A stretch of DNA of 64,000 nt from Escherichia coli (GTDB lineage: Bacteria; Pseudomonadota; Gammaproteobacteria; Enterobacterales; Enterobacteriaceae), in assembly GCF_003334385.1 (NCBI RefSeq), contig NZ_QOWN01000011.1; one strand, written 5' to 3'. A program made the position numbers and the translations under genes. The notes below the pieces were generated by a model. That model had not been told where the DNA came from. It saw only the letters and a list, made by a program, of their open reading frames with translations, and did no database searches. This document shows, piece after piece, positions 15,237-15,578 of the stretch (position 1 is its first letter; every line of letters begins with the position of its first letter).

Positions 15237-15578
15237 TTACGCGACCTTTTTTGCACGCTCTTCACGGCGTGCCAAATATTCAGCCACTGTTTCAATCCGT
15301 CCCAATTCTTCCTGGGTGCGCATGTTGTTTTCAACTTCCCAAAGATCAACCGCCGCCTGGAGGTTTAGCCAAAAATCGACTGTGGTATCAAAAACTTTCG
15401 CCAGACGAAATGCCATCTCAGTAGTGAGTTTACGATTGTTATTGATCAGTGCACTGACGCTATTACGATGAACATGCAGCAACTCTGCTAACTCATTGAT
15501 TTTCAAATCGAGCGGTTCCAGATATTCATAGAGAAGAATATCTCCGGGTGTCGTCGGTTTTCTTGTTGCCTGTTTCAT
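15237..15578 (-). CDS. ybaQ: HigA-like XRE-family HTH protein (orphan antitoxin-like regulator), 113 aa
   Basis: Start taken at MKQATRKPTTPGDILLYEYLEP within track ORF 15237..15632; HTH region INELAELLHVHRNSVSALINNNRKLT. Confidence 0.85.
   Translation of the reverse strand: MKQATRKPTTPGDILLYEYLEPLDLKINELAELLHVHRNSVSALINNNRKLTTEMAFRLAKVFDTTVDFWLNLQAAVDLWEVENNMRTQEELGRIETVAEYLARREERAKKVA

Follow-up and report, generated by a model that had tools for sequence, protein, structure and literature searches.

The HigA-family gene ybaQ of Escherichia coli as the probable survivor of a higB-1/ybaQ toxin-antitoxin cassette

The window analysed here, a stretch of 64 kb of Escherichia coli DNA, has the gene order copA, REP array, ybaQ, ybaP, ybaK and ushA around the gene of interest. 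The ybaQ coding sequence (15237-15578, minus strand), defined by its open reading frame and translation, comprises 113 codons plus stop and encodes a HigA-family antitoxin and HTH repressor. On its left lies copA (12417-14921, plus strand) and on its right the divergent neighbour ybaP (15716-16510, plus strand), a member of the TraB/GumN family; these two genes are the left-hand and right-hand anchors of the cassette insertion site described below. A repeat search placed a REP/BIME array of three 101-bp units (14955-15215) 3' of the ybaQ stop codon and before copA, and two of the REP units score above the gathering threshold of Rfam RF02564 (naRNA4/CssrE), with 89 and 80 bits on the minus strand. 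naRNA4/CssrE is a REP-derived nucleoid-associated RNA. At the other end of the gene, the start codons of ybaQ and ybaP are 137 nt apart.

The YbaQ translation (MKQATRKP...RAKKVA, 113 aa) matches the NCBIfam profile TIGR02607, "HigA family addiction module antitoxin", with 105.3 bits against a cutoff of 47.7 bits, the match joining YbaQ residues 6-84 to positions 2-80 of the 81-position model. Residues 16-70 (15369-15533, minus strand) form an HTH_3 DNA-binding domain (Pfam PF01381, E 1.6e-10), and the 15 homologues compared have almost the same sequence, HVHRNSVSAL(I/V)NNNRKLT, in the region of the recognition helix. Profile, HTH domain and the gene order found in relatives all fit, and YbaQ belongs to the HigA family; the RefSeq label in thousands of E. 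coli genomes is likewise "ybaQ: HigA family addiction module antitoxin". The structure of the protein has been solved: PDB 2EBY, entitled "putative HTH-type transcriptional regulator YbaQ", has a chain with exactly the sequence encoded in the window. The C-terminal tail, RREERAKKVA (15240-15269, minus strand), serves in the literature as a ClpXP degradation tag, counted among the ClpXP/ClpAP-specific degrons and used in cell-free work (PMC2907309). All members of the YbaQ family have ssrA-like C-termini of the form -xxA/VA and, together with the ClpXP-type tail, these ends would fit a short-lived antitoxin. Some gene callers report a 131-aa ORF from an in-frame upstream ATG at 15632 (for instance in locus L035); we favour the 113-aa start at 15578 because the MKQATRKP N-terminus is conserved in all homologues. 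The start at 15578 has no well-spaced Shine-Dalgarno sequence; 15 nt separate it from the end of an upstream AAGGAAG motif.

No toxin partner was found beside this gene. A tblastn search at word size 2 detected no HigB-1-like sequence in the 64-kb window, the best match having an E value of 0.089 and lying far from ybaQ. An earlier note on this DNA had described an orphan HigA-like HTH gene without a toxin neighbour, and the open reading frame, the TIGR02607 match, the flanking genes and the negative tblastn search all agree with that description. A complete type II toxin-antitoxin (TA) module has an adjacent toxin gene and an autoregulatory operator; the window has neither, and its ybaQ locus is an incomplete TA module.

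The missing partner is present at the same place in other E. coli strains. When a 721-nt query covering ybaQ and the start of ybaP was compared with other genomes, it was split in many of them into two pieces, and the sequence in between was annotated as a "type II toxin-antitoxin system RelE/ParE family toxin". In strain SCU-116 this toxin is encoded by a 303-nt CDS on the ybaQ strand, with 35 nt between it and the downstream ybaQ, and a 303-nt CDS also separates ybaQ from ybaP in CFSAN061771, E2, AR_0077 and ATCC 11775. Its product, HigB-1, has 100 aa and matches Pfam PF05015 (HigB-like_toxin) with an E value of 9.4e-32; of the solved structures, only chain B of PDB 6F8S, a "Putative Killer protein", is related to it (E 3.4e-14). 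In CFT073, higB-1 is frameshifted. The YbaQ of toxin-bearing strains, WP_000806442.1, is 100% identical to the protein encoded in the window. Among 5,426 complete E. coli genomes, ybaQ is found in 4,834 and is absent from about 592 (about 11%), while the higB-1 region is found in 1,267 (about a quarter), always as one chromosomal copy. By subtraction, and on the assumption that the higB-1 genomes keep ybaQ, about 3,570 genomes carry an orphan ybaQ as in the window and about 590 carry neither gene.

This pair of genes has been studied experimentally. Rousset et al. (bioRxiv 10.1101/2020.05.25.114553) reported that phylogroups B2 and F have higB-1 upstream of ybaQ and found ybaQ to be essential in four of the five higB-1-carrying B2/F strains that they tested, but not in CFT073, which has a truncated higB-1; in toxin-less strains ybaQ was non-essential. 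In the same work, knock-down of ybaQ in strain S88 de-repressed higB-1, and the YbaQ ChIP-exo motif was present in the higB-1 promoter. According to these authors, higB-1 is missing from K-12 and most phylogroups, so that ybaQ is a conserved toxin-less antitoxin, K-12 retaining the antitoxin alone and phylogroup D having lost both genes. YbaQ had already been termed a solitary antitoxin in 2007 (RASTA-Bacteria), and the essentials of its reading as a remnant antitoxin are thus already known from these two publications. The earlier note called the targets of YbaQ unknown, which is out of date: one target, the higB-1 promoter, has been identified, and YbaQ has been studied by ChIP-exo in K-12. 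Furthermore, the presence of higB-1 explains why some E. coli strains, and not others, depend on ybaQ, a "core" gene. The window shares with the B2/F module the same locus and a 100% identical YbaQ, but there an unrelated 81-nt segment takes the place of higB-1 and the operator.

As regards the operator, a near-invariant element, aTGCACTTGcGCACaGTGCatgnGTGCgnTAnaaT, lies upstream of higB in all 20 toxin-bearing loci (20/20). It consists of four GCAC/GTGC half-sites arranged with two-fold symmetry, GCAC-N4-GCAC-N-GTGC-N4-GTGC, which overlap a -35-like TTGCGC and reach a -10-like TAnaaT. The GCAC/GTGC element is probably the YbaQ operator, an assignment that agrees with the YbaQ ChIP-exo motif in the higB-1 promoter and with the de-repression observed upon knock-down (bioRxiv 10.1101/2020.05.25.114553). 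Even when up to 3 mismatches are allowed, the element does not occur in the window, and searches of the 64 kb for the half-site pattern returned either no matches or matches at chance level only.

Where toxin-bearing genomes have about 410 nt, made up of the operator/promoter, higB-1 and the 35-nt spacer, the window has 76-81 nt. The flanks common to both kinds of allele are GGAGTTG on the ybaP side and, on the other, the ybaQ start codon (ATG) together with the preceding 10 nt or so. In MAFFT alignments of the alleles, the 81-nt segment upstream of ybaQ (15579-15659, minus strand) is specific to the toxin-less allele, and the ybaP-proximal intergenic DNA (15660-15715) is invariant among alleles with the toxin, without it and without ybaQ. 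The 81-nt segment occurs only in toxin-less Escherichia loci, with 91-100% identity, and a blastn-short search of the fetched loci and the rest of the window for its source gave no match outside such loci. MAFFT had aligned the segment with the higB-1 promoter and spacer, as would be expected of a deletion scar; this candidate was rejected. Local and end-anchored alignments of the segment to the higB-1 region were no better than those of shuffled sequences (z 0.7-0.9). The segment is thus unrelated to the higB-1 region, which argues for a replacement and not a simple deletion. Within it, a consensus scan found a candidate sigma-70 promoter (15628-15656, minus strand) with TGGAGA, a 17-nt spacer and TATGAT (9/12 matches), which, judging from this pattern match, is probably the promoter of ybaQ.

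To place the locus among its relatives, YbaQ homologues were scanned in one genome per species, which yielded 17 loci. In all 14 loci outside the copA-ybaP context, tblastn showed the YbaQ homologue to be directly preceded by a HigB-1 homologue. Thirteen of these paired loci belong to Enterobacterales (Trabulsiella, Citrobacter, Enterobacter, Kluyvera, Sodalis, Erwinia, E. albertii and others), and the remaining one is from a Caldilineaceae MAG; the only toxin-less loci among the 17 are three Escherichia copA-ybaQ-ybaP loci. The earlier note had suggested that ybaQ might be a remnant antitoxin and had proposed synteny in other genomes as the check. With a toxin gene adjoining the ybaQ homologue in 14/14 non-syntenic loci, rather than in none, and with the toxin present at this very locus in a large minority of E. 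coli genomes, the comparison favours the remnant. In four of the 14 paired loci the toxin ORF appears disrupted while the antitoxin is intact. The disrupted HigB-1 homologues, interrupted by a stop codon or frameshift, are those of Citrobacter portucalensis (L007), Escherichia sp. ESNIH1 (L011), Enterobacter sp. Bisph1 (L012) and Citrobacter koseri (L013). These interruptions suggest that toxin-first decay may be recurrent, sequencing error being a possible cause as well.

Genomes without the cassette indicate where it came to rest. In Citrobacter rodentium, in a second Citrobacter-like contig and in another enterobacterial genus, copA is followed directly by ybaP, with no ybaQ. Since copA adjoins ybaP in these outgroups, the cassette was inserted in the Escherichia lineage. 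A further locus, L034, with an 80%-identical YbaP, was dropped as it proved to be an error-rich E. coli assembly.

Among solved structures, the closest pair is PDB 6F8S, in which chain B resembles HigB-1, as noted above, and chain A, an XRE regulator, resembles YbaQ (E 3.2e-10). We take this complex to be GraT/GraA of Pseudomonas putida, with the toxin gene first. The toxin-first order is also that of higB-1/ybaQ and its homologues. Unlike the window, the 6F8S pair is complete, and the C-terminal extension of YbaQ is the longer one and ends in the ClpXP tag. Canonical HigBA systems (HigA in PDB 4MCX/6CHV; "antitoxin higa" in 2ICP) have the families TIGR02607, PF01381 and PF05015 in common with higB-1/ybaQ, but their similarity to YbaQ is distant (E 3e-6 to 3e-9), their operator is another one and their pairs are intact.

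Taking these observations together, we consider it very probable that ybaQ is the surviving antitoxin/repressor half of a higB-1/ybaQ cassette of type II (HigBA family) whose toxin gene was lost. In the history that we propose, an ancestor of Escherichia acquired the cassette between copA and ybaP. In the intact cassette, a single promoter would drive higB-1 and then ybaQ, with the symmetric GCAC/GTGC operator overlapping that promoter. YbaQ represses the higB-1 promoter and would so protect the cell from a RelE-fold toxin, presumably also neutralising HigB-1 by direct protein-protein contact, while its C-terminal tail would mark it for ClpXP turnover. In the lineage of the window, the toxin gene and the operator/promoter would then have been swapped for an unrelated 81-nt segment with a sigma-70-like promoter, and what is left is a free-standing ybaQ with neither its cognate toxin nor the ancestral operator nearby. 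That higB-1 was lost and not gained is an argument from parsimony only. If correct, the locus is a clean natural example of TA decay, in which the toxin goes first and the antitoxin lingers under selection and is then lost in some lineages. To what had been published, the present analysis adds an operator architecture common to 20 loci, an unrelated replacement segment in place of a simple deletion, allele counts over 5,426 genomes and evidence against an involvement of the REP array.

Further steps of this decay are found among present-day genomes. In strain TUM20902 (L003:3001-3030), which has no ybaQ, approximately the last 21-22 nt of the gene are joined to 30 nt of the toxin-less-type segment, corresponding to a deletion of about 372 bp (roughly 15258-15629 of the window). 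Because the junction keeps the toxin-less-type segment, the loss of the toxin preceded that of ybaQ in this lineage. In ST2747-type genomes (n=347; L002:2650-3060), ybaQ is replaced by about 430 bp that hold a copy of a dispersed repeat. This repeat is roughly 270 bp long, is present in 2-8 copies in every E. coli genome and has a sub-threshold match to the Rfam TwoAYGGAY RNA (34.8 bits, threshold 43). The chromosomal orphan ybaQ of Escherichia sp. E1V33 (L009:3001-3342) is frameshifted after about codon 93. In STK78-E (L026:1589-2706), an IS1A lies inside the orphan ybaQ, which is annotated as two pseudogene fragments. The decay series thus runs from the toxin frameshift of CFT073 through the toxin-less allele to the IS1 insertion in ybaQ, the frameshift of E1V33 and the deletion of TUM20902.

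The orphan gene has nevertheless been kept by most of the genomes that lack the toxin, with about 3,570 of approximately 4,160 toxin-less genomes retaining the full-length ybaQ region. Between toxin-less alleles that share the derived segment, synonymous changes prevail, for example 9 synonymous against 3 non-synonymous changes (binomial p = 1.6e-4), and the deficit of non-synonymous changes has p values of about 1e-4 to 1e-5 across comparisons. This synonymous excess shows that ybaQ is under purifying selection in the absence of the toxin, which argues against a purely inert relic. At the protein level, YbaQ is identical in five toxin-bearing alleles and the window, and the toxin-less alleles sampled have one to three substitutions, a comparison of 11 sequences, some of them picked as the most divergent, which as a small and biased sample is suggestive only. 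The toxin-less allele is old: it is present in three Escherichia genomes representing separate species clusters, and its 81-nt segment has diverged by up to 9% between lineages, a distribution that leaves some doubt as to which state is ancestral in Escherichia. Our reading of present-day ybaQ is that of a dispensable relic under weak purifying selection, whose product may still be able to bind GCAC/GTGC operators and HigB-1-type toxins in trans. Several explanations for the retention of the orphan gene have to be weighed.

One tentative explanation is that YbaQ was domesticated after the loss of the toxin as a stand-alone transcription factor and regulates unrelated chromosomal promoters; the earlier note had likewise named a stand-alone regulator as an alternative. 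In K-12, which lacks the toxin, ChIP-exo of YbaQ yielded peaks and a MEME motif (Gao et al. 2018), consistent with such a role, as is the purifying selection on toxin-less ybaQ. A CRISPRi single-cell screen lists ybaQ among partially characterised regulators with inferred functions, and Rousset et al. (bioRxiv 10.1101/2020.05.25.114553) suggested that other functions of YbaQ are possible. However, the texts consulted describe no YbaQ regulon or phenotype, an operator-like site is absent from the 64-kb window, and the gene is dispensable in toxin-less strains and missing from about 592 genomes.

To an equal degree doubtful is the proposal that ybaQ has no function at all and has simply not yet decayed. 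The independent losses, by IS1 insertion, by frameshift and by two deletion/replacement alleles, with about 592 genomes in total, would be expected of such a gene, and amino-acid changes were seen only in toxin-less alleles, albeit in the small and biased sample mentioned above. The retention of the full-length region by the great majority of toxin-less genomes and the significant non-synonymous deficit between their alleles, on the other hand, speak against it.

An anti-addiction or immunity role is a further, unlikely explanation. Under it, the orphan YbaQ would owe its retention to the neutralisation of HigB-type toxins, to the repression of higBA operators on incoming D6-like (P1-like) phage-plasmids, or to both, and would thereby weaken the post-segregational killing by these phage-plasmids. 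Tblastn found HigB-1 homologues with 80% identity, adjoining YbaQ homologues with 78-82% identity, on E. coli and Salmonella plasmids. The plasmids that carry the higB/higA pair are roughly 75-95 kb in size and have phage tail, baseplate and Ref genes, and phage D6 carries the same pair. The D6-like pairs have the same operator core as higB-1, TGCACTTGCGCACAGTGC; they differ from the locus of the window in being intact and located on a mobile replicon, and in an antitoxin C-terminus that reads -NKKAA. These near-identical operators on D6-like phage-plasmids, a further addition of the present work, render the question of ybaQ retention experimentally concrete. Besides the roughly 80%-identical pairs with their shared operator, the near invariance of the YbaQ recognition helix within the family and the purifying selection in toxin-less lineages are in favour of the explanation, and orphan antitoxins have been proposed in the literature as modules of this kind. 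A precedent is offered by ccdEch of Erwinia chrysanthemi against ccdF (PMC2654758), likewise a chromosomal antitoxin homologous to that of a mobile element; ccdEch, however, belongs to the CcdA/CcdB family and retains its own toxin, so that its likeness to ybaQ is conceptual only.

Against this role, cross-neutralisation at about 80% identity is uncertain, as TA pairs often evolve insulation, and the plasmid-borne D6-like pair occurs in only 76 of the 5,426 E. coli genomes (1.4%). Moreover, about 11% of the genomes have lost ybaQ, and in E1V33, the one co-resident case examined, the chromosomal ybaQ is the frameshifted gene described above. This strain also has an intact D6-like higB/higA pair (L010:2627-3315) on a 94.6-kb contig. 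The stronger form of the proposal, that orphan YbaQ is a selected trans-acting immunity against D6-like phage-plasmids which, through operator binding and/or HigB neutralisation, would cancel addiction, we regard as rather improbable. Were it true, the loss of its own operator would release YbaQ expression from autorepression.

A different objection concerns the direction of change. The orphan state could be ancestral, higB-1 and its promoter having been added later beside a solo ybaQ in the B2/F lineages, which we judge very unlikely. In its favour, the upstream segments of toxin-less and toxin-bearing alleles are indeed unrelated, and Escherichia genomes that diverge from one another have the toxin-less allele. 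Yet all other family members are canonical operator-higB-higA units, and toxin-first decay appears to recur elsewhere (L007, L011, L012, L013 and CFT073). In addition, the ybaQ of the window differs from toxin-bearing alleles by 4-7 synonymous and zero amino-acid changes, with no mosaic junction, and a gain of the toxin would therefore have needed to be joined precisely at the ybaQ start.

Finally, a REP-mediated deletion of the toxin gene, put forward in the earlier note and prompted by an array that abuts ybaQ, can be set aside almost entirely, because the array is on the copA side and the toxin sat 5' of ybaQ, towards ybaP, and because the REP copy number varies independently. No REP sequence is present in the junction segment (15579-15659), and the toxin-less alleles, judged by the copA-ybaQ spacer, have about 0 (L005), 1 (L004, L025, L027), 2 (L009, L035) or 3 (the window) REP units. 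In four of the five toxin-bearing alleles examined, this spacer measures 57 nt and is without REP. In the fifth (CFSAN061771, L021:1-261), a transposase gene of ISApl1 (IS30-like) lies between copA and ybaQ.
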